64,000 nt of DNA from a virus. The translations under genes and the position numbers were made by a program. The stretch lies in the IMG/VR virus record IMGVR_UViG_3300008267_000019, positions 1-64,000 of that record. The stretch is one strand, 5' to 3'. How positions within the stretch are numbered: the stretch's first letter is position 1; every line of letters begins with the position of its first letter. A model generated the notes under the pieces. That model saw nothing but the letters and a program-made list of their open reading frames with translations. It was not told where the DNA came from and made no database searches. This document shows positions 5,099 through 62,805 of this stretch, one piece after another.

Positions 5099-6268
5099 AT
5101 GAGTGATAACAACGAAGAGTTATTTGAAGGACTTCAAATAATGTCGCCAGAAGAACTGAATTCTGCAGTAAAAGCTGAAGATGTAGGTTCGGAAGATATA
5201 AGCAATTCAGTAGGAGAATCTGAAGAGTTTATATTAAAACCTGTAGCAGCAGAAACTGGAGATGATGCAACTACAAGGGAAAGTAAGGAAACTTACGTAC
5301 AAGAAAAAACTTCTGCTTCTAACGAGAACAGGGGTGAAACTGTTTATAAGGCTTTATTAAAAGAACTAGTTAAAGAAGGAGTAATTACTGCAGAAGAAGC
5401 AGAACTAGAACAATTACCTGGAAACTTTGACACTATAAAAAGTTTAGTTAATAAAACTGTAGAAACAAGTTTTAAAAATAAAGAAGAAAATTGGAAGCGT
5501 AATCTTTCTCCTGAGAAAAAAAGATTCTTAGAAATAGAAGATGCTTTTGATGAAACGGACCATGCAATCTTAATGGCCCAACGATTAGAGTTCTTTGAAA
5601 ATATCAGTGTAGATGCTATTAAGACAGATACAAACCTTCAAAAGCAAATTTACTTTGAGCAGTTAAAAGCTAAAAACTTTTCTGATCAAGAAGCAGTAGA
5701 AGCAATAGAAGATGCAGTTGCAATTAATAAATTAGAGGACAAAGCTTTAAAAGCAGTTCCTGAATTAAAAGCAATGTCTGAAGCAATCGTAGAACAATCT
5801 AGATATCAAAAAGAACAACAAACAAAAGCTGCTATAGAGCAACAAACAAAAGCTTTTGAGAGTTTGCTAGCTAATATAGATACTAGAGATCATTTTATAG
5901 ACGGTTTAAATCTTAATAAGATCACAAAAGATAAATTAAAAAATAACATTACAAGTCCAATATACAAAGATCCTAAAACAGGAAAAGAGTATAATTCTTT
6001 AATGTACAAACAAGCTAGAAATCCTGTAGAGTTTGAAATGTTAATAAACTACTATGACACTTTAGGATTATTTAATTTAGATAAAGAAGGCAAATTTAAA
6101 CCAGATATTTCTAAATTAAAAAACGTAGCAAAAACAGCAGCAATAAATGAGCTCGACAAAATTATTGCAGCAGAAGAACAAAGAGGAGTTGGCAGAAACA
6201 CATCTGTTGAGACTTCTCAAAGAACCGAGGGAATTTTAAGTATGCTAGAAAAAGCAACTAAAAGATAA
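5099..6268 (+). CDS. Acidic helical protein between portal and MCP (probable scaffold/assembly protein)
   Basis: Very acidic N-terminus, coiled-coil character, position directly upstream of the MCP. Confidence 0.6.
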   Translation: MSDNNEELFEGLQIMSPEELNSAVKAEDVGSEDISNSVGESEEFILKPVAAETGDDATTRESKETYVQEKTSASNENRGETVYKALLKELVKEGVITAEEAELEQLPGNFDTIKSLVNKTVETSFKNKEENWKRNLSPEKKRFLEIEDAFDETDHAILMAQRLEFFENISVDAIKTDTNLQKQIYFEQLKAKNFSDQEAVEAIEDAVAINKLEDKALKAVPELKAMSEAIVEQSRYQKEQQTKAAIEQQTKAFESLLANIDTRDHFIDGLNLNKITKDKLKNNITSPIYKDPKTGKEYNSLMYKQARNPVEFEMLINYYDTLGLFNLDKEGKFKPDISKLKNVAKTAAINELDKIIAAEEQRGVGRNTSVETSQRTEGILSMLEKATKR

Positions 6269-6306
6269 ATAATATATTCGTCTAACAATTAAAATAAAAA
6301 CAACAA

Positions 6307-7818
6307 ATGGCTCAATTACTTCCATTACAAAGGTATGAAGCTAAAGACTACAATGGTTTGGTTACTGATAACCACTTCCATTCTTTGTACCAGCAAAAGC
6401 CTCAGTTGATTAGCAACGTGATTAAACAAATCTACAAGACTAATCTTCAAGGTAAGCTGCGTGAATTCGTAGATCGTTTTCCTGTTAAAGAAGTTGAACA
6501 AGAAAATGGATTCTACAACTGGTTATTGCAAGGTCAACATGACAAAAACTTGCCACTAGTAGACGCAGAAACAATCAACGGTCTTACTATTTCTGCAGGT
6601 ACTTTTCCTGCAAACATAGGAGCAAACGGTGAAAGATTTTACTTAATCTTTGACGAACCTCTATTTGAAGAAACTAATGTTCTTCGTGGTGAGGTTGATG
6701 ACTATCATTTATTGGTTAAAAAAGCAATGGATGCTGGTTCTCGTTACAAAGTAGAAGTAGAACTTGTAACTGACAATCCTAATAAAACAGTTCCTTCAGA
6801 AGAACTTGCTATTGGTACTCGTTGGTCTAAATTTTACTCTTTGTCTCCTTCAACACTTTCTTATCAAGGTGCGAAGCCGTATTTCACTTCTCCTTGGAGA
6901 ATGGAAAACCGTCCTTCTACTTTGAGAATGGAGTATGAAGTAGCAGGCAACACAATCAACAAAGGTAAAAACGAACCATTAGAGTTTGGTTTTGCTTACA
7001 AAGGACAAACAGAATCTATTTGGATTAACTATCAAGATTTGGTAGCACACCACCAATGTGAAGAAATGTTTGCTCGTATGTTGATGTACGGTAAGAAAAA
7101 CTGGACTTCTGATCACAAGTACTTAAACAAAGATGACAAGACTAAATATGCTGTTGAGTCAGGTGCTGGATTCTTTGATCAAATCGCTCCATCAAACGTA
7201 CACTACTACAACTCTTATGATTTAGATTGGCATCTTGAGTTATTACTTGACATGGGTGTTGGTAAGATTGAAAGAGGTAAGCGTGTTATTCACTTGTTAA
7301 CTGGGGAATTTGGTGCTATCGAAATCTCTAAGCAAATCCAAGCTAAAACAGGTACAGGTAAATTTACTGTAATCTCTGACAAATTCTTGTTTAAAGATAC
7401 AGATCCAGGAAACCTTGGTGGTAAAAACACTAAAGGAGCTATGGAGCCACAGTGGAATGTTTATGAGTGGTACAACGGTGTTGTTATCATGGTTGAAATC
7501 CTAGATTTCTTTGATGATGATGTATACTTCCCACAAAGACATCCTGATGGAAAAGGTATCGTAGAATCTCACAGAATTCTTGCTCTTGATTATGGTGATA
7601 CTGCTGGTATCTACCGAGTTAAGCCTAAAGGAGTTCCTGATTACAACTGGGCATACATCCCTGGTATGAGAGATCCTTTCTCTCCTGCAGGTAAAGGTTC
7701 GCCTAAGATGGTTGCTTCTCGTGTTGATGGTTATGAAGTTCATTTCCAAAAATGGGGAGGTATGATGATCGAAGATCCTACTAAAGTAGTTGATTTACGT
7801 TTGAACGTATCTCGATAA
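6307..7818 (+). CDS. Major capsid protein
   Basis: 503 aa, crAss-like MCP size and position, codon usage of a highly expressed gene (many TTC/TAC/AAC/CGT), C-terminal YIPGMRDPF...DGYEVH segment. Confidence 0.88.
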   Translation: MAQLLPLQRYEAKDYNGLVTDNHFHSLYQQKPQLISNVIKQIYKTNLQGKLREFVDRFPVKEVEQENGFYNWLLQGQHDKNLPLVDAETINGLTISAGTFPANIGANGERFYLIFDEPLFEETNVLRGEVDDYHLLVKKAMDAGSRYKVEVELVTDNPNKTVPSEELAIGTRWSKFYSLSPSTLSYQGAKPYFTSPWRMENRPSTLRMEYEVAGNTINKGKNEPLEFGFAYKGQTESIWINYQDLVAHHQCEEMFARMLMYGKKNWTSDHKYLNKDDKTKYAVESGAGFFDQIAPSNVHYYNSYDLDWHLELLLDMGVGKIERGKRVIHLLTGEFGAIEISKQIQAKTGTGKFTVISDKFLFKDTDPGNLGGKNTKGAMEPQWNVYEWYNGVVIMVEILDFFDDDVYFPQRHPDGKGIVESHRILALDYGDTAGIYRVKPKGVPDYNWAYIPGMRDPFSPAGKGSPKMVASRVDGYEVHFQKWGGMMIEDPTKVVDLRLNVSR

Positions 7819-13554: not shown

Positions 13555-14763
13555 ATGAACTACGAAATAAAGTCTGCTTTAACTGCATCTGTAAGAGAAA
13601 TATATTATGATAAGAACCTAAATAGAATGGCGTTTAAAAACGATTTAGGTATTATTACTCCTTTAGATAATATTAGTGTACCTGGACCTCAAGGACCACA
13701 AGGTCCTACAGGAGCAACAGGTGCAACTGGAGCTACTGGTGCAACAGGTGCTACAGGGCCCGCGGGTGCGCAAGGTCCTGTAGGTCCTGCAGGATTAAAT
13801 TGGCAAGGAGCGTGGTCAGCATCAGGAACTTATGTAGTAGACGATGCAGTAGGATATGGAGGTGCATCTTGGTTTTGTATAGCTAACGTAGGCCCTTCTG
13901 TAACTACACCTGATTTAGATCCTACTAATTGGGCATTATTAGCATCTCAAGGAGCAGTAGGTCCGCAAGGGCCTGCAGGAGTTAATGGCGCAGCAGGTGC
14001 AGCAGGAGCACAAGGACCTCAAGGTATTGCAGGACCTAATATAGTAGTAATTGATTCTACAGGTATTACTAGTGGTACAGCTACTAGAGTGTTATTTGAA
14101 AGCACTGCAAATCAAGTAAGTGAAGATGCAAGATTTTTATATAACTCAGCAATAAGCTCATTAAATAATACAGGTAAAGCAAATGTTTTAACAAATACTG
14201 CTTTTGGACATGAAGCTTTATCAAATACTTCTGCAACAGGAAATACTAATACTGCTATAGGATACTCAGCTCTTACTAATACTACTACAGGATTTTCAAA
14301 TACTGCCGTAGGGTATAATACTTTAGCATCTAACACAATAAACACAGGAAACACTGCAATAGGTTATAGTGCATTAGCAAATAATAATGGAAATGACAAT
14401 GTTGCACTAGGATATGAAGCATTACAAGGAAATGGCGCAGGAAGTAATAATGTTGCAATAGGGTACGGTACATTAATTGCCAATGATACAGGTTCTAATA
14501 ATGTTGTATTAGGTTATAAAGCAGCACAAGATAATATTTCTGGAAATAATAATATAGTAATAGGAGACAATGCTTCTACAGGTGACCAAAATTATTGTTT
14601 AGTAATAGGTACTAATGCTATTCCACAATTTGATAATGAAGTAGTAATAGGATCTTCTACAGAACCTTTAGGAACTGTTAGCTCAGGAGCCCCTACTGCA
14701 ACTGATAAATGGGAAATAAGAATTAATGGAATTAGATACTATATTCCTTTAGAAGCAATATAA
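13555..14763 (+). CDS. Tail fibre / adhesin with collagen G-X-Y repeats and beta-roll repeats
   Basis: [15 protein letters not shown]... repeats, followed by about ten ~14-aa [18 protein letters not shown] repeats resembling trimeric autotransporter (YadA-like) heads. Confidence 0.8.
13684..13795 (+). repeat. Collagen-like 9-bp-period coding repeat
   Basis: Runs of GGAGCAACA/GGTGCAACT/GGAGCTACT encoding (G-A-T)n and (G-P-Q)n. Confidence 0.8.
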
Positions 14764-15369: not shown

Positions 15370-16614
15370 ATGGGAACAATTATCTCTACACCTGGATTAA
15401 ATAATTTTAATTTATTAAATAATCAACCTATGCTTGCTGATGCATTTGGTAGATTAAGAGTATCCACACCTTTAACTTTATTTGATTCTTCTCATAGATA
15501 CAAAGACAATGGTTTATGGAATACGTATACTGCTAGTGGAGGTACTGCCGTATTTAGTCCTAATGAAGGTTTGATGAATCTAAATGTAGATACTACAGCT
15601 GGATCAGAAGTTCTTAGAGAAACTACTAAAGTGTTCTCCTACCAACCAGGTAAGTCATTACTAGTATTAAATACATTTGTAATGGCTCCTAGTCAAAAAT
15701 TTTTAAGACAAAGAGTAGGTTACTTTGGTACAGATAATGGTATTTATTTAGAGCTTAATGATACTGATGGATTATGTTTTGTAGAAAGAAGTTTAGTAAC
15801 TGGAGTTGCTACAGATACTCTTGTTCCTCAAAACTCTTGGAATGTAGATAGATTAGATGGCTCTGGACCTTCAGGAATTGTTTTAGACATAAGAAATGCT
15901 CAAATCATGTTTATGGATATTGAGTGGTTGGGAGAAGGAACTGTAAGAATAGGTTTTATTATAGACGGTAACTTTATACTTTGTCATAGATTTAATCATG
16001 CCAACTTAATTACATCAACATATATTACTACAGCATCTCTTCCGTTAAGATATGAGATAACTAACTTAGGTGTTACAGATAATCCAAGCACATTAAAACA
16101 AGTTTGTTCTAGTGTTATATCTGAAGGAGGATATGAACTTAGAGGAGCTCAATTGGCTATTGGTACAGATATCACAACACCCACAAGTTTAGCTGTAGCA
16201 GGTACTTATTATCCTATTGTTAGTATAAAACTTAGATCAGCTTATGAAGATGCAGTAGTTATATTAACTGCTTTATCTATTATGGGTGTAGCAACTGGTA
16301 TATATAACTGGAAAATAGTAGCTAATGGTGCTACAGCTGGAGGCGCATGGGTTCCTGCAGCAGTAGATTCTGCTGTAGAATATAATATAACAGGAACTAG
16401 TTTTGCAGGAGGTAGAACACTAGCATCTGGATTTATTACGTCAACTGCACAAGCTTCAGTTAATCTAGATATACTTAAAGAAGCTCTATTTAACTTTCAG
16501 TTAGAAAGAGATACATTTACAAGTAAAACTTTTGAGATTACATTAATAGTAAGTGCTAGTACTAATACAGAGTTGATTTATGCATCAATGGACTGGGAAG
16601 AAGTAAGCAGATAA
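15370..16614 (+). CDS. Putative tail-associated beta-sandwich (lectin-like) protein
   Basis: DAFGRLRVS, YQPGKS and WLGEG motifs recalled from a family common in aquatic phage tail clusters. Confidence 0.55.
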   Translation: MGTIISTPGLNNFNLLNNQPMLADAFGRLRVSTPLTLFDSSHRYKDNGLWNTYTASGGTAVFSPNEGLMNLNVDTTAGSEVLRETTKVFSYQPGKSLLVLNTFVMAPSQKFLRQRVGYFGTDNGIYLELNDTDGLCFVERSLVTGVATDTLVPQNSWNVDRLDGSGPSGIVLDIRNAQIMFMDIEWLGEGTVRIGFIIDGNFILCHRFNHANLITSTYITTASLPLRYEITNLGVTDNPSTLKQVCSSVISEGGYELRGAQLAIGTDITTPTSLAVAGTYYPIVSIKLRSAYEDAVVILTALSIMGVATGIYNWKIVANGATAGGAWVPAAVDSAVEYNITGTSFAGGRTLASGFITSTAQASVNLDILKEALFNFQLERDTFTSKTFEITLIVSASTNTELIYASMDWEEVSR

Positions 16615-16624
16615 TATATAAGCA

Positions 16625-17233
16625 ATGAGTACAAGAATAGATATAAAGCCAGAATCTGATCCACCTGTAGGAGCTACTCTAATGAAGAGTGGACAGACTA
16701 CATCTTACCGTACAGGAGATGATGGAGATATAGAAGCTGGTAGAGCTACTTCATTTAGTGTACTTGCAAGTAATAATCCATTTGGAAACACGAATAGATT
16801 TACCGATGAGTTAGGCAATCAAACGTATACGAATAATATTGTAATTGATTGGTCTACTTACAACGGCTCTAACGTACTTGGAATTTCAAGAATAGCTATA
16901 CCAACGGGGAACACTTGGAACCAAGCAATAGATAATTCTTTGTCTTATTCGATAGGTTCTTTTACAACGGGTTGGAGATTACCAAATATAAAAGAGATTT
17001 TCAACTTAATGAATTTCGCAAACGACCAAAACAACTTATTAAATTACTCCCCATTCAATTTTTCTTCTGTAGGTAGAGTATATTGGAGCTCAAATACTGT
17101 CTTAAACGCAACTACACAAGCATATGTATTGACAAATATTGGTACATTGAATGTGTCTGCTAAAACAACTTCTGTTGCCTACACCTATTTCAGAGTAAGA
17201 ACATTCACAGTAACGGGAACAACTTTAACTTAA
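16625..17233 (+). CDS. DUF1566 / Lcl C-terminal (C-type-lectin-fold) domain protein, putative receptor-binding
   Basis: TWNQA...GWRLPNIKEI...YWSS motifs; N-terminal SGQTTSY..GDDG. Confidence 0.75.
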   Translation: MSTRIDIKPESDPPVGATLMKSGQTTSYRTGDDGDIEAGRATSFSVLASNNPFGNTNRFTDELGNQTYTNNIVIDWSTYNGSNVLGISRIAIPTGNTWNQAIDNSLSYSIGSFTTGWRLPNIKEIFNLMNFANDQNNLLNYSPFNFSSVGRVYWSSNTVLNATTQAYVLTNIGTLNVSAKTTSVAYTYFRVRTFTVTGTTLT

Positions 17234-17240
17234 AAATATT

Positions 17241-17474
17241 ATGGCAACTTATAAATTTCCTCAATTTAATACAGAAATTACTAACCCAACTGTGACAGTA
17301 ACAGTTGTTAATGATTTTATTCAAGAAAGACTTTGTAATGCAGAAGTAATACTTTCTGTACCAGATGCAAACTTTGGTGTAATATTTTATGGTTATACTT
17401 ATACTACAGATTGGAATGACCAGGATATTATAGCTTGGGTAAATAATGTTGAACTTCCCAAATATGAAATATAA
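17241..17474 (+). CDS. Small hypothetical protein
   Basis: 77 aa; stop overlaps the next start (TAATG). Confidence 0.6.
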   Translation: MATYKFPQFNTEITNPTVTVTVVNDFIQERLCNAEVILSVPDANFGVIFYGYTYTTDWNDQDIIAWVNNVELPKYEI

Positions 17475-17974
17475 TGAAGGAAGAGGCAACATCAGGTTTT
17501 ATAGGATTTAGTAGCCCATTAGATTTTTTCTATTCACTTGTTGGTGCTAAAAGTTGGACAATTAATGCTGGTGCAGCATTTATTGCAGGATTAACTTCTT
17601 TTATTACAAATTATATTTGGGATGATCCTACAGCAGTATATACTCTTTGGTCATTAATGTTTGCAGATTGGATGTCAGGTATTATTAAAGCAGTTGTTAA
17701 TAAACGTTTTGTAAGCTTTAAAATATGGAGAATGCCTTTATATTTTGTAGCTACTTCATATATTTTACACATATCTTGGTATATGGCAAAAAGCAACGGG
17801 ATATATTACTATTTACCAGCAGTTGTAATAGGCGGATTCTATTCTGTATATTTTGTATCTTTATTAGAAAACTTAGGAGATATAAAAGCACTGCCAAAGC
17901 CTTTAGTAAAAATTCTTAAATCTAGATTTGGTTTAAAGAAGTTAATAGAAAAAGACGAAAAAAATGATGAATAG
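17474..17974 (+). CDS. Holin (phage holin 4 / toxin-secretion-holin-like)
   Basis: Three to four hydrophobic helices, D..SG..KA motif, SLLENLG..LPK.L motif and a charged C-terminal tail. Confidence 0.75.
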   Translation: MKEEATSGFIGFSSPLDFFYSLVGAKSWTINAGAAFIAGLTSFITNYIWDDPTAVYTLWSLMFADWMSGIIKAVVNKRFVSFKIWRMPLYFVATSYILHISWYMAKSNGIYYYLPAVVIGGFYSVYFVSLLENLGDIKALPKPLVKILKSRFGLKKLIEKDEKNDE

Positions 17975-18146
17975 ATATTATAGACCAACACCTCTTAAAT
18001 GGAGAAAAATAGGAGATACTTTATTAATAATTAGTACTACTATTACTACATTTGCAATAACTGAGCAAATAGAGTGGCTAGCGTATGTTGCTTTATTTAT
18101 AGGTGTAGTAGGTAAATTTTTAAGTAACTTGTTTGTAAAAAAATAA
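17964..18146 (+). CDS. Small two-helix membrane protein (holin-like)
   Basis: Basic N-terminus (PTPLKWRKIGD) followed by two hydrophobic segments. Confidence 0.6.
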   Translation: MMNRYYRPTPLKWRKIGDTLLIISTTITTFAITEQIEWLAYVALFIGVVGKFLSNLFVKK

Positions 18147-18179
18147 CAAGTTATATTATATAAATCAAATAAAAACAAC

Positions 18180-18476
18180 ATGGCAAAGAAAAACGTAAAA
18201 AACGTTGATGTAACTGTAGAAGCAGGAAAAGCAAAAGTTACAGTAGTAAAGAAAGAAAAGCAAGTTAAAGTTGCAGTAGATACTCCTAATGTAGATGTAA
18301 CATTTAACAAAGAAGATGAAAACAACAAAGAGTTTGTATTAGATACTAAAAAACTTGATGTTACCGTAAAGAAAGAAGAAGGTGTTACTACAGTAGAAGT
18401 AAAGTCAGAAAATGGATTACTTAGACAAGTAGGTAAAATTCTTTCTAAAGTTATTTTAAGAAGAGCTAATAAATAA
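18180..18476 (+). CDS. Small K/V/D-rich beta-repeat protein
   Basis: 98 aa with repeated VDVT/LDVT-like strands; A-rich leader. Confidence 0.6.
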   Translation: MAKKNVKNVDVTVEAGKAKVTVVKKEKQVKVAVDTPNVDVTFNKEDENNKEFVLDTKKLDVTVKKEEGVTTVEVKSENGLLRQVGKILSKVILRRANK

Positions 18477-18480
18477 CAAA

Positions 18481-19599
18481 TTGAAAAATCTCCCAAAAGA
18501 AGAGTTATTAAGTAGGCTAGAAGCAATTAACAGAAGTAATGCTATTATCTACTTTGACCTTGCTGGTATTATACTAGGGGTCAATGACATTTTTTTGGAG
18601 GCAATGGGTTATGGTAAAGGCAACCATGATGATATCATTGGTAAACACCATAGCATTTTTGTTTGTGAAGATTATTCAAAATCATTTGAATATGAGAAAT
18701 TTTGGGATATTCTAAGAAGTGGTAAGTATTACACTGGAGAATTTGAAAGAAGAAAAAAGGATGGAAGTCTTATTAATCTTCAAGCAACTTACAATCCTAT
18801 ATTTAATGAGGATGGTAAGATTACCAAAGTTATGAAGATTGCTACTGACATTAGTTTAATTGTCAATAGTAAGAAACAGATAGATGCCATCAACCGAAGT
18901 ACTGCTCTTATTAGTTTTAACACAGATGGTTTTATAACAGATGCTAATTCTATATTTTTAGAAACAATGGGATATAAAGCCAATGAAAAGGCTAAAGTCA
19001 TTGGGAAACATCACAGCATTTTTGTTAGCTACGAGTATTCTAAATCTGATGAATATGCTAAGTTTTGGGAAAGTCTGAGAAAGGGTAAGTTCTTTGATGG
19101 AATATTTGAAAGAAGAAAAGTAGATGGATCTACTGTTTATTTACAAGCATCTTATAATCCTGTAGTAGACAGCAAAGGAAATATAACAGATGTAGTTAAA
19201 ATTGCAACTGATGTAACTGAAGCTGTAAACAATGAAAAAAAGATAGAGGATCTTTCAAAAAATCTACAAATAGAACTAGACAACTCTCAAAAACTTAAGA
19301 ATGCAATAGAGATAGAAAAGGATGCAGCTTTGAATGACTTAGATGTAATGATGAAAAAAAGCCAAAGTGAGCTAATTAAAATCATTGTTAAAGTTGCATT
19401 GGCTGTTATAGTTGGAGTTGGACTTGTAACAACACTATTATATTGGGTTGCCATTGTAACAAGTCAAGATACTCAGATCATTGGATCAACTTGGAGTAAT
19501 ATGTTTAGTGTATTATTAACTAATGCCTTTTCAATAGTAGGTACAATCATGGGTATCAAGTATGCTACTCAGGAAACTGGAGGTAAACAAAAAAAATAA
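18481..19599 (+). CDS. Tandem PAS-PAS sensor protein with coiled coil and two C-terminal transmembrane helices
   Basis: Two BdlA-like PAS/PAC repeats (AINRS.A.I.F...N..FL..MGY...IGKHHSIFV...FW..LR.G...YNP....G....V.KIATD). No MCP, kinase or GGDEF output domain. TTG start codon. Confidence 0.9.
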   Translation: MKNLPKEELLSRLEAINRSNAIIYFDLAGIILGVNDIFLEAMGYGKGNHDDIIGKHHSIFVCEDYSKSFEYEKFWDILRSGKYYTGEFERRKKDGSLINLQATYNPIFNEDGKITKVMKIATDISLIVNSKKQIDAINRSTALISFNTDGFITDANSIFLETMGYKANEKAKVIGKHHSIFVSYEYSKSDEYAKFWESLRKGKFFDGIFERRKVDGSTVYLQASYNPVVDSKGNITDVVKIATDVTEAVNNEKKIEDLSKNLQIELDNSQKLKNAIEIEKDAALNDLDVMMKKSQSELIKIIVKVALAVIVGVGLVTTLLYWVAIVTSQDTQIIGSTWSNMFSVLLTNAFSIVGTIMGIKYATQETGGKQKK

Positions 19600-19605
19600 A
19601 ACAAT

Positions 19606-19890
19606 ATGAGAAAATTTTTTAGAGAGCTAGTCTCAGAAAACAACTATATAAATGAACAAACATTTGTGGGTGTAGTAGCTTTTTTTGCTATGGTATTTAT
19701 TTTAATAGTTGATGTAGTTACAGGCATTTGGGGTAAAGAATTAATCATCAAAGAATTTATTTTTGATGGATTTATGATTATCACTCTAGGTGCATTTGGA
19801 ATTACTACAGCTGGTAAAATACTTTCTCAGAAGAAAAAAGAAGAAGTAAAAGAAGAAGAAGAAGTAAATAATCAAGAAGAAATAGGATAA
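19606..19890 (+). CDS. Two-helix membrane protein with charged C-tail (holin-like)
   Basis: Hydrophobic segments FVGVVAFFAMVFILIV and FMIITLGAFGI, KKKEEVKEEEE tail, directly upstream of the endolysin. Confidence 0.65.
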   Translation: MRKFFRELVSENNYINEQTFVGVVAFFAMVFILIVDVVTGIWGKELIIKEFIFDGFMIITLGAFGITTAGKILSQKKKEEVKEEEEVNNQEEIG

Positions 19891-19892
19891 TT

Positions 19893-20702
19893 ATGGTACT
19901 AAAAAAAGGAGACAATAATGATACTGTTAAGAAGATTCAAGCAGTATTAGGTGTAGAACAAGTAGGTAACTTTGGACCAAAAACAGAAGCTGCTGTTATT
20001 GAGTTTCAAAAAAAACATGGTCTTACTCCAGATGGAGTTGTAGGACCTTCTACATTAGCTAAAATGGGTATTACATTAGATTCTGCACCAGCAGCTGCTA
20101 AACCAGCGGTTGCTTCTAAATATACAGCAGCTCAAGTAAAAACTGCAGTAGCATCTAAAAGCTACAAATGGTTTGAAGGTAAAGATTTAATGTTAAATAT
20201 TGTAGGAATACGTAATTCTTTTACAGGTCAAAAAGTAACTAATTTATTTGACGATCATTTAACTTTAACTTATACAGTTAACGGTGTAGAACATTTTCAT
20301 TGCTGGCCAGCTACTACAGATCCTGGAACTAAAGGTGTAATGCAGTATGGAAACAAAGCTGGTGTAGCTAGACTAGTAGAAGGACAGTACATCAACTCAC
20401 ACATCATGCGTTTACATGCAGGTAAGTATGAAGCACTAGGACAAAACAAACCAGTTAAAGTATTCCGTGATCCAAACAAAGATATGGTATATGATGAAAA
20501 GTCAATACAAGAAGGATTATTTGGAATCAATATTCACAAAGCTGGAGCAGATTCAACATTTGTAGAAAACTGGTCAGAAGGATGTCAGGTATTTAAGAAG
20601 TCTGCAGACTTTGAAGAGTTTATGGCAATATGTAGAAAAGCAAAAGCTATACACGAAAACAACTTTACATATACTTTAATCGAGTCAAACGACATTGTAT
20701 GA
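19893..20702 (+). CDS. Endolysin: N-terminal peptidoglycan-binding domain plus YkuD/L,D-peptidase-like catalytic domain
   Basis: PG_binding_1 motif FGPKTEAAVIEFQKKHGLTPDGVVGPST, A/P-rich linker, GINIH...WSEGCQV His/Cys motif. Confidence 0.82.
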   Translation: MVLKKGDNNDTVKKIQAVLGVEQVGNFGPKTEAAVIEFQKKHGLTPDGVVGPSTLAKMGITLDSAPAAAKPAVASKYTAAQVKTAVASKSYKWFEGKDLMLNIVGIRNSFTGQKVTNLFDDHLTLTYTVNGVEHFHCWPATTDPGTKGVMQYGNKAGVARLVEGQYINSHIMRLHAGKYEALGQNKPVKVFRDPNKDMVYDEKSIQEGLFGINIHKAGADSTFVENWSEGCQVFKKSADFEEFMAICRKAKAIHENNFTYTLIESNDIV

Positions 20703-20857
20703 AATTTAGAAATAACTGGAAATCTAAAAATAGACAATGGGATAAACTAATGATAAGAATTAGAATTAGTTCTCTAGATATATTTACTGCAGAGTTAGAT
20801 ATATCTAGAGAGTTCTATCTTATTACTATTTTAAATTTAACTTTTAAAAATAGATAA
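20699..20857 (+). CDS. Small hypothetical protein, 52 aa (not in ORF track)
   Basis: MKFRNNWKSKNRQWDKLMIRIRISSLDIFTAELDISREFYLITILNLTFKNR*; ATGA overlap with the endolysin stop. Confidence 0.65.
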   Translation: MKFRNNWKSKNRQWDKLMIRIRISSLDIFTAELDISREFYLITILNLTFKNR

Positions 20858-20859
20858 TC

Positions 20860-21000
20860 ATGGCTAAAATTAAAGAACAAGGATTGTCATTAAAAAGAGA
20901 TACTAAAGTATCTAGACCAGGCATCCATGCTAAGACTAAAACTTCTGTAAGTAAAAGCTCTAAAAATTATAGAAAAGCTTACAAAGGACAAGGAAGATAA
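20860..21000 (+). CDS. Small highly basic protein, 46 aa (not in ORF track)
   Basis: MAKIKEQGLSLKRDTKVSRPGIHAKTKTSVSKSSKNYRKAYKGQGR*; packed 2 nt after the previous stop. Confidence 0.7.
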   Translation: MAKIKEQGLSLKRDTKVSRPGIHAKTKTSVSKSSKNYRKAYKGQGR

Positions 21001-21015
21001 TTAATAAAATAATCT

Positions 21016-21023
21016 TATATTTG
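21016..21023 (+). promoter_or_regulatory. Bacteroidota-type -7 promoter element (TATATTTG)
   Basis: TAnnTTTG only 5 nt before the ATG at 21029, which would give a leaderless or near-leaderless transcript. Confidence 0.5.
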
Positions 21024-21028
21024 CTATT

Positions 21029-21739
21029 ATGCTATCACTAGACGACTTACATGCTCAATTAGATGAAACACTGGCAATTAACTCAGTAGAATCATCTTAC
21101 TCATATGAGTTCTATACAGATCTTATAAATGAGCAAAGATCTCTTTGGCTACGTAATGAGTATAATAAAAACCGCAGCATAGATCCTTATATCATACAAA
21201 ATCTAAATTGCGTAGAATTAGAACATGTAAATCCTATAGATTGCTGTATAGAAGTTCCAGGATTATGTCAAGTATTAAGAACAAAAAAGAAAATTCCTAA
21301 TACTATAGAGTTTAACTTTACAAAAGGAATAGTAGCTGTAGGCCCTGCAGAAATAACAAAACCAAGATATATTTTAATAGATTACTCTAGAGTTCCTTAC
21401 GCAGGTAACGGACGTACTACTAAAAATTCTATATATGCATTTTTATATGGAGGATATTTGTATATCATTAGTAAAAATCCTAATGTAAATCTTTTACAAT
21501 ATATTACAATTAGAGGTTTATTTGAAGACCCTACTAGTTTAGGAGAATTTATTAATTGTGAAACAGGAAATAGTTGTTGGAAACCTTCTGACCCTTATCC
21601 AATAAATCAATGGATGTGGGCATATATTAAACCAATAGTAATTCAATATTTAATGCAGAAAGGAATGTTCCAATACGATGATGCAAATGATGCACAAGAT
21701 AGCAGAATTAATCCTCCAAGTCAAGCAGGTACAGAATGA
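21029..21739 (+). CDS. Putative tail/neck ring protein
   Basis: 236 aa with IRGLFEDP...DPYPI motif recalled from crAss-like ring proteins; upstream of the IHF-like and tube genes. Confidence 0.6.
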   Translation: MLSLDDLHAQLDETLAINSVESSYSYEFYTDLINEQRSLWLRNEYNKNRSIDPYIIQNLNCVELEHVNPIDCCIEVPGLCQVLRTKKKIPNTIEFNFTKGIVAVGPAEITKPRYILIDYSRVPYAGNGRTTKNSIYAFLYGGYLYIISKNPNVNLLQYITIRGLFEDPTSLGEFINCETGNSCWKPSDPYPINQWMWAYIKPIVIQYLMQKGMFQYDDANDAQDSRINPPSQAGTE

Positions 21740-55911: not shown

Positions 55912-56136
55912 ATGTAATCTTTCAAAAAGTTTTTCTGCACAATCTACAGCAAGATCGGCTAAAACATCAGTACGATGTTTAACATATTCAGGATTACTAA
56001 GCATTCCTTGCAAAGCTAACATAGCACAATATTCAAACTTATTTAAGCCCATAAATCCTTCTAAATGATTAGGATTTTCTGTTACTACGCCTTTATCATC
56101 AACTATTGGATGTATCGGCAATTCTTTTTGTTTCAT
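55900..56136 (-). CDS. Small conserved phage hypothetical protein
   Basis: GL.K.EY.A..ALQG.L.NP...AV..A..L pattern familiar from small phage ORFs. Confidence 0.7.
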   Translation of the reverse strand: MKQKELPIHPIVDDKGVVTENPNHLEGFMGLNKFEYCAMLALQGMLSNPEYVKHRTDVLADLAVDCAEKLFERLHKEQ

Positions 56137-56494
56137 GGTATTGTTCTAATTCTTCGTCTGTTAACTCTTTTAACACACATCTGGAAAGATCTATCCCTGA
56201 GCGAGTTAAATTAGTTATCAAATGTAGAATTTTTCCATCAGATTTTGCTATTTGTTCTCCAATAAATTCTATGCCCATCATAGTATTAGCAGCATTAATT
56301 TCATCAGTTTGCCAAATTAAATCCCTGTTCTTGCTATTTTTTAAATTTAACGCATTAATAGCTTCTCTAACTTTTTGTTTTATATTACCTTGATCATACA
56401 CAGTTCCTTCAAGTTCTAGTTGACAATTTAATACAACCTGCATAGCAGATAAAAGAATAATATATGTTATTGCTTCTTCACTAGGTTCTTCCAT
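56099..56494 (-). CDS. Hypothetical protein
   Basis: 131 aa in a tightly packed minus-strand operon. Confidence 0.6.
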   Translation of the reverse strand: MEEPSEEAITYIILLSAMQVVLNCQLELEGTVYDQGNIKQKVREAINALNLKNSKNRDLIWQTDEINAANTMMGIEFIGEQIAKSDGKILHLITNLTRSGIDLSRCVLKELTDEELEQYHETKRIADTSNS

Positions 56495-56496
56495 AT

Positions 56497-56688
56497 TTAA
56501 ATTTTATTTTGTCTTTTATAATCCATAAAAAATCCTATAGCTACTATAATGTTCATACCAATAGAAGCTATTATTTCATATATATCGTCGTATACGTTTA
56601 CACTAAGATGTATATGTCCTACCATCCAAAATGGAATAGCAAGATTCTGAGAAATCCATATTATTAAAAATACTAGGAAGTTTCTCAT
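56497..56688 (-). CDS. Small membrane protein
   Basis: 63 aa with two hydrophobic segments. Confidence 0.6.
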   Translation of the reverse strand: MRNFLVFLIIWISQNLAIPFWMVGHIHLSVNVYDDIYEIIASIGMNIIVAIGFFMDYKRQNKI

Positions 56689-57137
56689 AGATCAGGTTCT
56701 TGAAACCTATGTGATTTTAATACTTTATTGTCAGACAAACGGTAAGTTATAAAATAGTCTCCTACTTTTTTAGAATATGTTTGTATATTTCGGTCTAAAT
56801 ACTTTTTATAAGTAATAGTTGCATCTTCTTCAGAGACATCTGCTTTTGACATATTAGACTCATAAATTTTAGAAATAACCTCATGCGGATCTATACCAAA
56901 TTCCATCATAGCTCTAATAGTAACCCATAGTAAATCGCCTAAACCATCTTTAGTAGCTTTAAAGTCTTTATATCCTACTGCTTCTGCAGTTTCTAAAAAC
57001 TCTTCGTCAATAAGATCTAATGCTAATTTAGCCCTAGATACTTCAGGAAATTGCTCTTCTGTTAATACAGGCAATCCAAAAGTCTCACTCCAATGTTTGA
57101 TCATTTCTACGATACCTTTTTCTGAATTTTTTTTCAT
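56685..57137 (-). CDS. MazG-like / all-alpha NTP pyrophosphohydrolase
   Basis: LIDEEFLE...DGLGDLLWV...SNMSK...KVLK motifs. Confidence 0.85.
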   Translation of the reverse strand: MKKNSEKGIVEMIKHWSETFGLPVLTEEQFPEVSRAKLALDLIDEEFLETAEAVGYKDFKATKDGLGDLLWVTIRAMMEFGIDPHEVISKIYESNMSKADVSEEDATITYKKYLDRNIQTYSKKVGDYFITYRLSDNKVLKSHRFQEPDL

Positions 57138-57432
57138 AATTTAAATAAAATTGTTTTTCATAATAATCTAAATCTTCCCAATTGTATACAGGAGTAGTTA
57201 ACATTTCTTCTTCTGTAAAATAACTAGAATCTTTATGCCCTAAGCAAGTTCTTTTTTTACTAGCTAATATTAAATATTGATCTATGACTTTAAATACTTT
57301 AGGAACTCCTACATTAAAAATATTAGCTATTTCTGCTGCAGATTTCCCATCTTCTATACATTTCCCTACAAATTTAATTTCTTCAGCAGAAAAATATGTA
57401 AACTTACCAGGAGAGTATTGCTTCTTTTCCAT
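57085..57432 (-). CDS. Helix-turn-helix protein
   Basis: GKSAAEIANIFNVGVPKV HTH pattern. Confidence 0.65.
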   Translation of the reverse strand: MEKKQYSPGKFTYFSAEEIKFVGKCIEDGKSAAEIANIFNVGVPKVFKVIDQYLILASKKRTCLGHKDSSYFTEEEMLTTPVYNWEDLDYYEKQFYLNYEKKFRKRYRRNDQTLE

Positions 57433-58087
57433 ATAAACTTTCTAATAATTTATCTACTTGTTTAAAATTAGGACACTGCCATTGTCTAAATGCTTTATTA
57501 GCTACCATAGGATGTTCCCAAGAAAATACATGATGATTAATAGAGAGTATCTCTGCATATTTATTAGCTTCTTTACCCCATAATAAAAATATAGTACCTG
57601 GTTTGTATTTTTCTATAACATATAATATACTACCAAAGAATTTTTTAAACTTTTCACGATGAGATTTAGGAGTATCTTTTCTTGCAACTAAGCTTCTGTT
57701 AAGCATTAGTATTCCTTGTTCTGCCCATCTTTCAAAAGTATTATCAAAGTCTAATCCTAAGTCATTATTATAGTCACTAACGCAGCGTCTTATAGCTTCA
57801 GCTGAAGAATTAGTATAGATAGAAGAAGTATCAGAAAATGCTAAAGGACCAAACCCTGTATACATTCCAGGTTCAGTAGATATTATTACTATTTTTAATT
57901 TATCCCAAGGACATAATTTAAAAGCTTTAAATACATCTTGTAATCTTTCAGGATACATATCAGATAATGCATAGTCTATATTTAAACTATTCATTAATTC
58001 TCCCATATAATCACTTTTTAATAAAGGCTTTAAAACTTCTGTCCAGCTTTCTCCTAATTGGTCAGTCCAATATTTTTTTGTCCTCAT
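57404..58087 (-). CDS. ung: Family-1 uracil-DNA glycosylase homologue with divergent active-site motifs
   Basis: W...L, YP...VFKAF.LCP...LKIVII, LAFS, WAEQGILMLN, FLLWGKEA and HP motifs. The start is probably the ATG at 58087 rather than 58132. Confidence 0.82.
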   Translation of the reverse strand: MRTKKYWTDQLGESWTEVLKPLLKSDYMGELMNSLNIDYALSDMYPERLQDVFKAFKLCPWDKLKIVIISTEPGMYTGFGPLAFSDTSSIYTNSSAEAIRRCVSDYNNDLGLDFDNTFERWAEQGILMLNRSLVARKDTPKSHREKFKKFFGSILYVIEKYKPGTIFLLWGKEANKYAEILSINHHVFSWEHPMVANKAFRQWQCPNFKQVDKLLESLYGKEAILSW

Positions 58088-58259
58088 TTTTTTTATTTTC
58101 TTCTTTCCAAAAATGATTACAAATTGCTTCATTTTTGTTCATTACATAAGGAGGTTCCATAAAATAAGCTTGTCTAAATTCATCAGGAGTAGCCGTAAAT
58201 CTATAGCAAGAAAATCTTAAAGGACATTTATGTCCATCACACATTGTTATATCTGGCAT
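58062..58259 (-). CDS. Small Cys-rich hypothetical protein
   Basis: MPDITMC...CP....CYRF...QAYF...C..FW; probable metal-binding protein. Confidence 0.7.
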   Translation of the reverse strand: MPDITMCDGHKCPLRFSCYRFTATPDEFRQAYFMEPPYVMNKNEAICNHFWKEENKKNEDKKILD

Positions 58260-58273
58260 ATCGTAAAAATTAA

Positions 58274-58297
58274 GGAGGAGTTAATTAAAACTCCTCC
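58274..58297 (-). terminator. Hairpin overlapping the stop of 58285..58920
   Basis: GGAGGAGTT-6 nt-AACTCCTCC, followed on the minus strand by TTAATTTTT. Confidence 0.6.
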
Positions 58298-58920
58298 GAT
58301 GGTATTAAATTAATTTTAGTAGGCAAAGATATTAATGTTTCTTTACTTAATGTCTCCTTATCTAGTTCTAATATTGGCCAAACTTCCTGATCATATAAAA
58401 ACCCAGGAGAATAATAAGTTTCAGTTTTTAAGCTTAACCTTTCTTCCCAACTAATTTTTAATGCTTCAGCTTTATTTAATATTAAAGGCAAAGTATAAGG
58501 CTTACCGCTAAAGAAATGATTGCTTAGAATTAGTTTTTTAGCCTTTGCAGTAATCTTAGAATATGCGCCTATCATAATAAATTTAAAATCTATGATGTTA
58601 TACTTAGGAATTTTCATTACAAAGATTAAGCATTCTCCTATACTATAATCATCTACATAATTTTCAAATGCAGTTATTGTAGAATAAAAAGAATCAAAAT
58701 CTTTGTCTCGATAATCTCTTACAGTAATAAACACATATTTATTATCTTCATCACTTTGATATTTAATAATATTAGCATCTTGCAAATAAGCATTTAAGAA
58801 TCTATTAGTATATTTTACCCTGCCAAACATGTCAGTAATATTGCAGGTAAATAAATCTTTAGGAACTTCTAATAACGGAAAAATAAAAGTTGCTGTTTTT
58901 GTGAATTTCATACTACTCAT
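58285..58920 (-). CDS. Conserved hypothetical protein downstream of the PD-(D/E)XK nuclease
   Basis: TK...FIFP, FLNAYL and GAYSKI motifs; ATGA overlap with the upstream gene. Confidence 0.65.
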   Translation of the reverse strand: MSSMKFTKTATFIFPLLEVPKDLFTCNITDMFGRVKYTNRFLNAYLQDANIIKYQSDEDNKYVFITVRDYRDKDFDSFYSTITAFENYVDDYSIGECLIFVMKIPKYNIIDFKFIMIGAYSKITAKAKKLILSNHFFSGKPYTLPLILNKAEALKISWEERLSLKTETYYSPGFLYDQEVWPILELDKETLSKETLISLPTKINLIPSEEF

Positions 58921-59945
58921 AACTCAATATACATTTCTCCATCATTATCATAATACTCCATAGGATATTCCCAAGCATTGTTGTTCATAGCGTACTCATA
59001 TCTTAACATTGCTTGTTCAAAACCATCTAAAGATTTGCCATTAGACAAAGTTCCCCCAGAAAATCCTATATCAAGAACTTTTTGATTTACTATAAAAACC
59101 ATAGGAGAATTAAAAAGATTTTTTTCTACAACAATATATAAAAAGTCAGAAATCTTATAATCTTTATCTAAATACTTAGCAATATCATCATGAAGAGTAA
59201 GGCCATATTTATACACAGCTGCTTGGAAATCATATCTATAATACCAAAAATCAGAATTAAATCCTAAAACACTTTTACCTGTAGATTTAAAATCTATAGG
59301 AATAATAGTTTTATCATTATGATCTATAATTACTCTGTCTAACTCGCCTTTAATATTATAACCTCGCCAATTAAATTCTATAATAAATTTATCTAAGATA
59401 TCTCTGTTAGATTTAGCTTTTTTTACTACAAACTCCCTAGTGTATTTATCACTGGACAATGCCATTTTACAAGCTACTGCTTTAGCATACTCAGTTTCTG
59501 ATACTACTATTTTTCCTATAGTATTTTTTATTTCTTCAAAATAGCCGTTACCTAATTCTATGATTTTATTTACCCTAGTTTCCTCTTTCCATACAGGATA
59601 TAGACCTAGATAATTACAATGCTGCAAAATTAAGTCTCTCATAGAATCTAGAGTCACATTAGTAAGATCCATATTTAGACTATTGCATTCTTCAATAATA
59701 TTATCTATCACTGATTTTACTGATTCAGTACATTTAATAGCGTCATCTACTACGGCATATTTACTTTCAAATTCTTCTTTTGTACCAGTAAGCATGATGT
59801 CTAATATAGAACCAAATATAAAATGGTCTTCAGTAGTTTTTCTGTTTTCTTGTTGAGCCTTTTTTGCTTGCAAATAACTTTGAGGACTCTCAAGAATTTT
59901 CTTTAGACTACTTTGATTTAGTGCATCTATTTCTCTATACTCCAT
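58917..59945 (-). CDS. PD-(D/E)XK nuclease (RecB / exonuclease VIII-like)
   Basis: LNQSSLK, FGS..D, KGELDRV, IDFKST and YDFQAAVY motifs. Confidence 0.88.
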   Translation of the reverse strand: MEYREIDALNQSSLKKILESPQSYLQAKKAQQENRKTTEDHFIFGSILDIMLTGTKEEFESKYAVVDDAIKCTESVKSVIDNIIEECNSLNMDLTNVTLDSMRDLILQHCNYLGLYPVWKEETRVNKIIELGNGYFEEIKNTIGKIVVSETEYAKAVACKMALSSDKYTREFVVKKAKSNRDILDKFIIEFNWRGYNIKGELDRVIIDHNDKTIIPIDFKSTGKSVLGFNSDFWYYRYDFQAAVYKYGLTLHDDIAKYLDKDYKISDFLYIVVEKNLFNSPMVFIVNQKVLDIGFSGGTLSNGKSLDGFEQAMLRYEYAMNNNAWEYPMEYYDNDGEMYIEL

Positions 59946-60439
59946 TATCTTTTAATTGTTTTAAGTTTATATACTAATTTTCTATCTTTTAGGTTATTGA
60001 CAGGAATAAATTCATAGGTAGTGCGACGAAGATACTCCACAGTATCATCGGGAAGAATTCCTTTCTTAATTAACACGTCATCTAGGCATTTAAGCCAGAT
60101 GAGTGCTAGATTACCAATATCCCAATTAGGTTTATAACCTTCAGGAGCAGGTCTCCATTGCACTTTTCTTTTATTAGTTTCCTTGTCTAAAACCATTTTC
60201 ATGTTTCCAAAATTTATTGGAGCATATACAGTAAGCCTTGTTTCAACAGGTCCTTGAATAGTAAGATTCTCAGGAATATGTTTTTCTATATATCCATGCA
60301 TGGCTGCCACTAGGGCAGCTCTTGTAGTATAATGTGCTGATGCATGAATTTTATTATAGCCTATTTTAACCCAGATCTTTTTGCTTTGTGGAATATGCGT
60401 GATAAATTCTGGAAATTCTAATTTGAGTTCACTTACCAT
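59945..60439 (-). CDS. RusA-like Holliday junction resolvase
   Basis: DIGNL...KCLDDVL...GILPDD pattern matches the RusA D..N..K...D......DD motif. Confidence 0.7.
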   Translation of the reverse strand: MVSELKLEFPEFITHIPQSKKIWVKIGYNKIHASAHYTTRAALVAAMHGYIEKHIPENLTIQGPVETRLTVYAPINFGNMKMVLDKETNKRKVQWRPAPEGYKPNWDIGNLALIWLKCLDDVLIKKGILPDDTVEYLRRTTYEFIPVNNLKDRKLVYKLKTIKR

Positions 60440-60456
60440 AATTTTTAAATTTTAAT

Positions 60457-61614: not shown

Positions 61615-61623
61615 AATTTTTAA

Positions 61624-62793: not shown

Positions 62794-62805
62794 AGTTTTA
62801 ATTTT

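Follow-up and report, generated by a model that had tools for sequence, protein, structure and literature searches.

A phage protein that joins tandem PAS domains to a membrane hairpin near the endolysin gene: a possible signal-gated regulator of holin triggering

The stretch of DNA analysed here (hereafter, the window) is the first 64 kb (64,000 nucleotides) of the 84,121-bp viral record IMGVR_UViG_3300008267_000019, which has direct terminal repeats and represents an uncultured freshwater phage. The gene at positions 18481–19599 (plus strand) of the window encodes a 372-aa protein (hereafter, the sensor protein) in which two PAS domains are followed by a coiled coil and a C-terminal hairpin of two transmembrane (TM) helices, TM1 and TM2. 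Comparison with the relatives of this hairpin suggests that the protein is a one-piece, short-circuited form of a phage-encoded unit that consists of a histidine kinase, a receiver (REC) domain protein and a hairpin protein. The chances that the sensor protein is a signal-gated regulator of holin triggering, that is, a signal-dependent antiholin or co-holin, appear to us about even; a protein of this kind would probably let an intracellular signal adjust the time at which the host bursts.

Domain architecture and the hairpin family

A Pfam search started with the sensor protein identifies PAS_3 in two stretches (E = 2.1e-24, 86 bits against a cut-off of 25.6), and further PAS models also score above their cut-offs (PAS_9, 72.6 bits; PAS, 57.2 bits; PAS_4, 42.6 bits); in NCBIfam, all matches are of the PAS type, with TIGR00229 at 98.5 bits. 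No output domain, be it of the kinase, methyl-accepting chemotaxis protein (MCP), cyclase or another type, is revealed by either database: neither HATPase_c nor a dimerisation/phospho-acceptor domain is present, and PF00015 (MCPsignal) gives no match at E values up to 0.1. Homologues carry the name methyl-accepting chemotaxis protein in the JGI annotation, which is explained by the similarity of the PAS domains to those of multi-PAS chemoreceptors; given that there is no MCP domain, the identification of the sensor protein as a chemoreceptor is ruled out.

The AlphaFold2 model of the protein (mean pLDDT 78.8, from an alignment of 41 sequences) comprises a PAS domain (residues 21–123), a helix (125–140), a second PAS domain (142–244), a single helix (246–326), a loop (327–331) and a final helix (332–365). 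PAS domain 1 (positions 18541–18849; PAS_3 stretch at residues 33–120) and PAS domain 2 (18904–19212; PAS_9 match at residues 147–247) are both modelled as five-stranded antiparallel PAS folds with flanking helices, mostly with pLDDT of 80–90. Each is closed by the motif ATD(I/V)(S/T), with a helix following directly; in PAS-coiled-coil sensors, an ATD-type PAS end before a helix is the usual junction for signal transfer into the helical linker. Because helix 246–326 is unbroken in the model, the cytoplasmic coiled coil of about 50 aa (residues 246–299; 19216–19377), which aligns with the coiled coil of the ~190-aa members of the family described below, is continuous with TM1 (residues 300–326; 19378–19458; hydropathy peak 2.61). 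Hydropathy places the membrane segments at about 300–326 and 336–361. The second of these, TM2 (19486–19563), is amphipathic, with a half-wheel that holds S339, N340, S343, T347, N348, S351, G354, T355 and G358 and so forms a polar/small-residue face; its alignment columns are near-invariant and it is the most conserved part of the family. The protein ends in a short basic tail (19564–19596); all these segments are encoded on the plus strand. The net charge is −1 in the hairpin loop and +3 in the tail (residues 360–372), and this location of the positive charge in the tail, not in the loop, implies that both ends of the hairpin and the PAS domains are cytoplasmic. Thus, the layout put forward in the original prediction, which was made from the DNA letters before any search (two PAS domains, a coiled coil and two hydrophobic C-terminal helices, with no output domain), is confirmed by Pfam, NCBIfam, AlphaFold2 and hydropathy. 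The TTG start codon given there is real as well, as indicated by the aligned starts in the 70 loci (of 80 related ones) where the open reading frame (ORF) was located: ATG in 57, GTG in 11, TTG in one and unplaced in one.

The sensor gene evolves under purifying selection. Across 400 random pairs of 81 homologues, dN/dS is 0.076 at a dS of 0.85, which shows that the gene is real and under selection; by region, with saturated pairs dropped (e.g., 316 of the 400 pairs were used for the coiled coil), the ratio is 0.079 for PAS1, 0.073 for PAS2, 0.075 for the coiled coil, 0.051 for the hairpin, the lowest value, and 0.27 for the tail, the least constrained part. Of the 8,000 candidates from the protein database that were scored, 4,291 are homologues at E ≤ 0.001; the top 120 show 87–94% identity. 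The loci used here as the PAS-PAS set are the best 80 of the 237 IMG/VR relatives (84–94% identical). Given the combination of low dN/dS with a dS of 0.85, the high protein identity reflects selection, not recent copying. The structural genes of the window mostly have homologues in 0, 1 or 2 of these 80 loci, the virion protein encoded at 15370 being present in 17, and the shared neighbours are more diverged than the sensor protein: the mean identity is 60% for a 94-aa membrane protein (27 loci), 74% for the endolysin (28 loci) and 46% for a 98-aa soluble protein (19 loci).

The coiled coil together with the hairpin represents a separate protein family. An exhaustive phmmer search started with residues 250–372 detects 101 proteins, 71 of them at E ≤ 1e-10; most of the 101 are 130–260 aa long and carry the module at the C-terminal end. 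Searched alone in this way, the C-terminal ~120 aa occur with other sensors (GAF and two types of PAS) and keep their proximity to endolysins, a co-occurrence that the original prediction had left to such a search. The hairpin of the window protein shares the family motif that precedes TM1 and the nearly invariant columns of TM2. In the common form of about 190 aa (alignment A1), a small conserved N-terminal domain is followed by a coiled coil of variable length and a hairpin with near-invariant TM2; the model of this form (pLDDT 90.9) has a 37-residue head and two helices, 38–151 and 156–189. Some members of the family thus possess a small non-sensor N-terminal domain in place of GAF or PAS.

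This family is essentially viral. At least 578 relatives of the hairpin are found in IMG/VR viral contigs, and among one genome each of 185,579 species there are only four matches, all in contigs from metagenome-assembled genomes (MAGs) of four different phyla. Three of these contigs encompass intact kinase and hairpin genes (two of them also REC), and the fourth contains only fragments. The contigs (L162–L165) are labelled Bdellovibrionota, Gemmatimonadota, Verrucomicrobia and Alphaproteobacteria, their gene content is phage-like, and they are probably phage contigs that were binned into MAGs.

In PHROGs, members of the hairpin family match only phrog_1544 (‘unknown function’), with E values of 0.003–0.007 (0.0066 for the window protein). 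A PDB profile search started with A1 returns only coiled-coil noise at E ≥ 0.08; Foldseek searches with the hairpin find nothing in PDB at E ≤ 0.001 and one uncharacterised family member in BFVD, and ESM Atlas and PADLOC yield nothing of known function. The hairpin had been described as holin- or antiholin-like, a description that homology does not bear out: searches of Pfam, NCBIfam, PADLOC, PDB and Foldseek yield no match of known function for it; likewise, none of the holin models of Pfam, PHROGs and NCBIfam matches the sensor protein.

The kinase-REC-hairpin unit and its fused forms

The default, ~190-aa hairpin protein is encoded by the third gene of a unit in which it is preceded by the genes for a membrane histidine kinase and a REC-only regulator of 143–148 aa. 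Among the 80 A1 loci, 76 encode the kinase and 79 REC, with REC no more than 900 nt upstream in 78; when at least 2 kb of upstream sequence is available, both the kinase and REC are present in 67 of 67 loci, with REC directly upstream in 66, and the single locus without REC has only 55 nt of upstream sequence. The ends of the genes overlap, as in L091, where REC occupies 5534–5971 and the hairpin gene 5971–6543. The kinases contain two N-terminal TM helices and, according to Pfam, HATPase_c with either PAS or GAF+PAS+PAS, and range from 295 to 711 aa depending on the number of cytoplasmic sensors. The small regulator matches Response_reg (31.2 bits against a cut-off of 30.2), and its acidic pair, phospho-acceptor Asp, Ser (run) and Lys are invariant in 24 sequences (<80% identical). 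A complete two-component pair followed by the hairpin gene is seen in more than 100 IMG/VR loci (L082–L240) of non-crAss-type phages (e.g., L091:4299–6543, L109:1141–3073 and L099:3442–5577), with REC proteins that are 67–86% identical to that of L091, used as the reference. A predicted complex of REC with residues 1–80 of the default hairpin protein scored 0.31, 0.04 and 0.01 against a mark of 0.32, without controls, and counts neither way.

All three types of sensor found in the kinases (GAF, PAS-a and PAS-b) are also seen fused directly to the hairpin. The GAF fusion is represented by P0135 and three full-length IMG/VR loci (76–81% identical). The MmoS-like PAS fusion is represented by a single database protein, P0130, and a scan of IMG/VR with P0130 finds no locus of this form. 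The window-type PAS fusion comes in a single form (P0123 and eight single-PAS loci, 245–261 aa) and in a double form, which comprises the window protein and its 80 relatives, with the PAS domains of P0124 grouping alongside. In the window and in the other fused forms, the gene does not directly follow a kinase and REC, the sensor being fused to the hairpin instead: no kinase or REC is detected within 5–6 kb of the GAF and single-PAS loci, and no HATPase_c kinase or REC is encoded anywhere in the whole 84-kb record that includes the window. SOUL, glycosyltransferase, dehydrogenase-like and zinc-finger N-termini (P0134, P0152, P0125 and P0122, respectively) were each found in a single protein and are not counted as fusions; these proteins may be chimeras or miscalled genes, and in the case of P0134 no IMG/VR locus covers the first 53 residues.

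A tree was built from the last 115 residues of 123 hairpin proteins (109 default proteins, 5 single-PAS and 4 GAF fusions, 2 of the 81 double-PAS proteins and 3 others). In it, the window-type fusions are united in a clade (support 0.995) that lies nested within the default proteins; a second clade (0.994) holds the GAF fusions, and P0130 groups with four default members (0.84). These separate clades indicate that the fusion occurred independently at least three times. The PAS tree, built from 262 of the 743 unique domain matches (every one of the 112 viral domains plus the 150 cellular domains with the best scores), unites PAS1 and PAS2 of the window protein with the domains of P0124 and P0123 (0.96); the successive outgroups are the five single-PAS fusions (0.75) and the PAS domains of three phage kinases (0.85), beyond which 71 domains of phage kinases and 149 cellular domains are intermingled with poor support (0.42). 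Sequence identities show the same gradation: PAS1 and PAS2 are 55.6% identical to each other, the PAS domains of phage histidine kinases are up to 59% identical to PAS1 and up to 54% to PAS2, and those of cellular multi-PAS chemoreceptors and GGDEF/EAL proteins are 37–49% identical to the window domains. The simplest history compatible with these trees would be a single fusion of a kinase-type PAS domain to the hairpin, followed by tandem duplication. Thus, the sensors probably were not grafted from a chemoreceptor, as had been proposed, the nearest outgroup being phage histidine kinase PAS; a closer cellular donor is possible, given that the cellular sample was restricted to proteins longer than 651 aa.

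The subtype of the PAS domains itself was correctly recognised in the original prediction: it is found in chemoreceptors, where it forms tandem arrays in cellular proteins that mostly contain PF00015, and it is tied to redox sensing through its nearest solved sequence relatives, the flavin-type redox sensors MmoS (3ewk, E = 4.1e-9), Aer (8dik, 1.4e-7) and NifL (2gj3, 5.3e-6). The Aer match involves the PAS domain of Aer and PAS domain 2 of the window protein. Solved tandem-PAS relatives include MmoS (3ewk), NifL (2gj3/9qq6), Aer (8dik), DosP (9cdr) and LOV-HK (6ph4), with sequence E values from 4e-9 to 5e-5 and, for the top Foldseek matches, structural E values from 4e-16 to 1e-13. A conserved His and the Trp of an FW motif align with MmoS, NifL and Aer, and the stretch that follows the His differs (the assignment of FAD binding to particular residues among those aligned is our assumption). 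The prominence of flavin and haem sensors of redox state and oxygen among the nearest solved relatives would fit an energy or redox signal; the PAS pair is probably dimeric and possibly holds a cofactor.

The similarity to host PAS sensors also raises the question of whether the protein could be a membrane-tethered decoy or sponge, in which the PAS pair would mimic host sensors and titrate a host ligand or partner, with the hairpin as a mere anchor. The PAS subtype is indeed common to many host chemoreceptors and c-di-GMP enzymes, at the 37–49% identity given above, and Pfam detects no output domain in the sensor protein. Nevertheless, we consider this very unlikely: it is the hairpin and not the PAS pair that is the most conserved part, a constraint not expected of a mere anchor; the same hairpin is common to forms with GAF or with a small non-sensor N-terminal domain; and the default hairpin follows a dedicated kinase-REC pair. 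Given that the hairpin is the best conserved part in every form, is connected by an unbroken helix to the regulatory head and is encoded in a holin/endolysin setting, it most likely is the output of the protein.

Association with lysis genes and the role of the hairpin

The PAS-PAS loci are linked to genes for endolysins. When neighbour clusters are counted within four genes of the sensor gene (one representative of each cluster was scanned with Pfam), Phage_lysozyme (152 aa, E = 7.6e-43) is found in 32 of the 80 loci, the PG_binding_1/phrog_3000 lysin in 28, Peptidase_M15_3 in 26 and a GH19-like lysin in 18; two clusters of Phage_holin_4_1 are present in 19 and 13 loci, and the family of small two-TM proteins to which the 94-aa neighbour in the window belongs in 32, with direct adjacency in 29. 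A lysin of the PG_binding_1, M15_3 or GH19-like type, with Phage_lysozyme left out of the count, lies within four genes in 70 of the 80 loci, in 56 of the 59 with at least 1.5 kb of flanking sequence on both sides and in 36 of the 39 with at least 3 kb. The other fused forms have the same setting: a lysin is encoded directly downstream of the hairpin gene in all eight single-PAS loci (GH19-like in six and M15 in two), often overlapping it, and a GH19-like lysin is present within three genes in two of the three GAF loci, the third continuing with a gene for a 1225-aa protein. Thus, homologues of the sensor protein remain next to endolysin genes while the endolysin family changes between PG_binding_1/phrog_3000, Peptidase_M15_3, GH19-like and Phage_lysozyme, contrary to the outcome that the original prediction had named as its refutation, namely, homologues unlinked to lysis genes.

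For the kinase-type loci (112 non-redundant hairpin sequences from 159 loci, with about 6 kb on each side), the most frequent neighbour clusters are the kinase (100), REC (99), the PG_binding_1 lysin (47) and the 94-aa family (27). A lysin of some type lies near 55 of the 112 hairpin genes, and near 28 of the 57 with at least 4 kb on both sides; given that the contigs of these phages are tens to hundreds of kb long, a few per cent would be expected by chance (an estimate, not a computed null). Since about half of these loci show no recognisable lysin within about 6 kb, the link to lysis is strong for the fused forms and only partial for the kinase parent. In fused and kinase-type loci alike, the gene most often found directly next to the hairpin gene belongs to the two-TM family of 75–100 aa, which includes the protein encoded at 19606–19890 of the window (another example is L091:7126–7374); this family is a candidate holin or binding partner. 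Other small proteins with at least two TMs are encoded within three genes in 49 of the 59 well-flanked PAS-PAS loci. Genes of accessory type are also seen next to hairpin and lysis genes, namely, those for a non-specific endonuclease (L167:8155–8748), an AdoMet decarboxylase-like protein (L168:5589–5981), a family-2 glycosyltransferase (L049:4472–5614) and a metallophosphoesterase (L220:3345–4034).

The architecture, the hairpin family, its linkage to the kinase and REC, the independent fusions, the proximity to endolysins and purifying selection are observed; an action of the hairpin on lysis, its control by the PAS pair and the nature of the signal are inferred. In the regulator that we propose, the two cytoplasmic PAS domains would read a state inside the infected cell, and this state would pass along the continuous helix into the phage-specific two-helix membrane hairpin. 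The hairpin would be the output, its conserved amphipathic TM2 most likely binding to or co-assembling with the adjoining holin-type proteins, and this contact would advance or delay hole formation. The head of the default form would be the part that takes up the state of REC; in the window protein, the PAS pair would take the place of the head, the kinase's own sensor domain having been fused directly to the hairpin with the loss of the phosphorelay.

Several observations weigh against control of holin triggering. Searches of Pfam, PHROGs, NCBIfam, PDB and Foldseek detect no relationship between the hairpin and a known holin or antiholin, and there is no member of its family in 50,697 GenBank phage records, so no cultured phage is available as a carrier. 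The residues round the conserved PAS His that are specific to Aer are not retained in the alignment. Lysis regions are common insertion sites for accessory genes. Three of the 59 well-flanked PAS-PAS loci contain none of the three counted lysin types (two of these have holin-like genes and genes of the 94-aa family, and one, L047, has none of the counted neighbour families), and no recognisable lysin lies within about 6 kb in 57 of the 112 kinase-type loci, or in 29 of the 57 with at least 4 kb of flank. Finally, 10 of the 59 well-flanked PAS-PAS loci encode no other small protein with at least two TMs within three genes, a situation that would suit a holin role of the sensor protein itself.

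Under the latter explanation, the PAS pair and the coiled coil would restrain the hairpin until a cytoplasmic signal arrives, and TM2 would then oligomerise into a lesion. Class II holins and pinholins have two TM helices, cytoplasmic ends, a charged C-terminal tail, a polar helix face and a gene adjacent to that of the endolysin. The sensor protein shares these traits, with its two TM helices, both ends in the cytoplasm, short basic tail (+3) and a continuous polar/small-residue face on TM2, its most conserved part, and all eight single-PAS genes occupy the classical holin position directly 5′ of the endolysin gene, often overlapping it. Unlike class II holins and pinholins, it includes some 300 additional cytoplasmic residues; its 372 aa are far above the size range of known holins, so that it can hardly be called small, and no holin family in Pfam, PHROGs or NCBIfam is homologous to it. 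Furthermore, other small multi-TM proteins, Phage_holin_4_1 among them, adjoin the gene in the 49 loci mentioned above, and the window itself contains a canonical holin gene at 17474. Hole formation by the sensor protein is therefore a rival proposal that we regard as unlikely, and the presence of these multi-TM proteins together with the canonical holin of the window favours a regulator of holin triggering over a sensor-gated holin.

A membrane effector unrelated to lysis timing, such as a modulator of host membrane energetics or transport that acts late in infection, a superinfection exclusion protein or a signalling component, is similarly improbable in our assessment. In this case, the lysis region would simply be a late, permissive site for accessory genes, which would account for the kinase-type loci that have no recognisable lysin; compatible with this are the accessory-like movement of the gene (84–94% identity across 80 loci that share a structural gene of the window in no more than 17 cases) and the lack of any homology in Pfam or PHROGs that would indicate lysis. 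Against it, three independently fused forms all adjoin endolysins that belong to several unrelated families, the endolysin and the small two-TM family are the top neighbour clusters after the kinase and REC, and no defence-system model of PADLOC matches. The lack of a PADLOC match also led us to reject a defence system as such, and a spanin was rejected given that the PAS domains and the charge distribution place the coiled coil on the cytoplasmic side.

The proposal of a holin-triggering regulator can be extended, tentatively and with odds that we would put against it, to a general scheme in which hundreds of uncultured phages would encode a lysis-decision pathway of their own, from a GAF/PAS membrane kinase through a CheY-like REC protein to the hairpin as a new signal-gated holin partner or holin. 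The relay would have been short-circuited by fusion in at least three lineages, and the PAS pair of the window protein would read redox or energy state, with lysis ensuing when the host no longer supports the phage.

In the cases that have been worked out, lysis timing is set through holin accumulation, to which T4 and ICP1 add antiholins that report superinfection. According to work on T4 (PMC11413866), a membrane-bound antiholin can act by blocking oligomerisation of the holin. The sensor protein would resemble T4 lysis inhibition, with its holin T and antiholin RI, in that an additional phage protein beside the holin ties lysis time to a sensed condition; RI senses superinfection and binds the periplasmic domain of the holin, whereas the phage hairpin protein has cytoplasmic PAS domains (GAF or a phosphorelay in its relatives), and there is no sequence or fold relation between RI/T and the hairpin protein. 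The ICP1 holin TeaA and antiholin ArrA provide a second, non-homologous case of a conditional-lysis pair that evolved in phages; the abstract of that report describes no sensor of the PAS/GAF kind, and there is no homology to the hairpin family (PMC7182436). In the bacterial LytSR/LytST-LrgAB/CidAB systems (PMC3507848, PMC6997555), a two-component system that responds to oxygen and metabolism is likewise coupled to holin/antiholin-like membrane proteins; these systems are cellular and act transcriptionally through a DNA-binding regulator, in contrast to the hairpin unit, which is phage-encoded and REC-only, with direct fusion in the window. None of the three (T4 T/RI, ICP1 TeaA/ArrA and LytSR-LrgAB) shares sequence, sensor type or cytoplasmic input with the sensor-hairpin protein. 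The PAS core directly before a signalling helix is a feature common to MmoS, NifL, Aer, DosP and LOV-HK, the outputs of which are kinases, phosphodiesterases, MCP domains or partner proteins; none of these ends in a bare two-helix membrane hairpin. A literature search, outside of which lay subscription journals and supplements, brought up neither a PAS-gated lysis protein nor a kinase-REC-hairpin unit of phage origin. The divergent REC domain discussed in passages of PMC7824862 is unrelated to the phage unit.

Conditional control of phage lysis is of a known kind; the coiled-coil hairpin family on which it would rest here is new. If the proposed function is correct, lysis would be governed by a different principle, in which a phage-encoded sensory pathway acts on a lysis-cassette membrane protein: the phage would measure an intracellular condition and set the burst time accordingly. 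Such a pathway would exist in two forms, a full kinase relay and a one-piece PAS or GAF protein. As a signalling architecture, a soluble sensor followed by nothing but a transmembrane hairpin as the output would be unusual as well. Members of the family are numerous in viral contigs of freshwater and marine origin and are under strong constraint. The one-piece form found in the window offers the simplest experimental handle, given that a single gene can be tested together with the holin and the endolysin.

The lysis region and the remainder of the record

Between 16625 and 20702, every gene of the window is on the plus strand, with overlaps or gaps of at most 35 nt. The canonical holin candidate (17474–17974; 166 aa) matches Phage_holin_4_1 in Pfam (E = 1.3e-9, 38.6 bits against a cut-off of 22.2) and the phrog_199 holin in PHROGs (E = 4e-7); the match to holin_tox_secr of NCBIfam (E = 1.3e-4) is under the cut-off of that model. 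The next gene, which overlaps the holin stop (17964–18146), codes for a 60-aa membrane protein with one hydrophobic segment, and is followed by the gene for a Lys-rich soluble protein of 98 aa that has no TM segment and appears beta-rich (18180–18476); no family was identified for either protein in Pfam or PHROGs. A homologue of the 98-aa protein (mean identity about 46%) is encoded directly 5′ of the sensor gene in 19 of the 80 related loci. Downstream of the sensor gene, a 94-aa protein with two TMs according to hydropathy and an acidic tail (19606–19890), for which Pfam, PHROGs and NCBIfam contain no family, stands between the sensor gene and the endolysin.

The endolysin gene (19893–20702; 269 aa) is recognised through PG_binding_1 (E = 9.4e-14, Pfam), phrog_3000 (E = 1.2e-32) and several endolysin PHROGs. 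Its N-terminal domain matches peptidoglycan-binding proteins in PDB. For the C-terminal domain (residues 110–267), presumably the catalytic one, there is neither a Pfam model nor a sequence relative of known structure, and it matches only phrog_3000 (‘unknown function’) and, weakly, phrog_33083; some relatives of the endolysin consist of the C-terminal domain alone (e.g., L109:3373–3984). Thus, the neighbourhood is the one that had been claimed, with Phage_holin_4_1 at 17474, small membrane proteins at 17964 and 19606 and a PG_binding_1 endolysin at 19893. A promoter and terminator scan of 16500–21200 gives counts no higher than those in shuffled sequences (22 versus 22.0 and 2 versus 1.5, respectively), so that no operon boundary was obtained.

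The sensor gene is surrounded by structural genes, among which PHROGs identifies those for the terminase large subunit, the portal and the major head protein, as well as genes at 15370 and 21029 for structural proteins of the virion. The gene just 5′ of the lysis genes, 16625–17233, encodes a 202-aa protein in which the Lcl C-terminal domain (PF07603) scores 34.5 bits against a cut-off of 34.9, and 13555–14763 encodes a 402-aa protein with collagen-like Gly-X-Y runs near the N-terminus followed by Asn/Gly-rich repeats, probably a tail fibre.

Among 15 DNA sequencing runs from 7 studies, the fraction of sampled words present ranges from 0.27 to 0.77, and 11 of the runs (5 studies) are labelled freshwater metagenome. 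The sensor, 19606 and endolysin genes are each covered in part by contigs from two riverine metatranscriptome runs (X16 and X17); as DNA carry-over is possible and these contigs give neither level nor strand, they are not used as evidence of expression, and no meaning attaches to the stretches left uncovered. The GC skew peaks over the lysis genes (0.28 at 18001–20000, versus about 0.1 nearby) and is negative beyond about 56 kb (56001–64000), where the genes turn to the minus strand.

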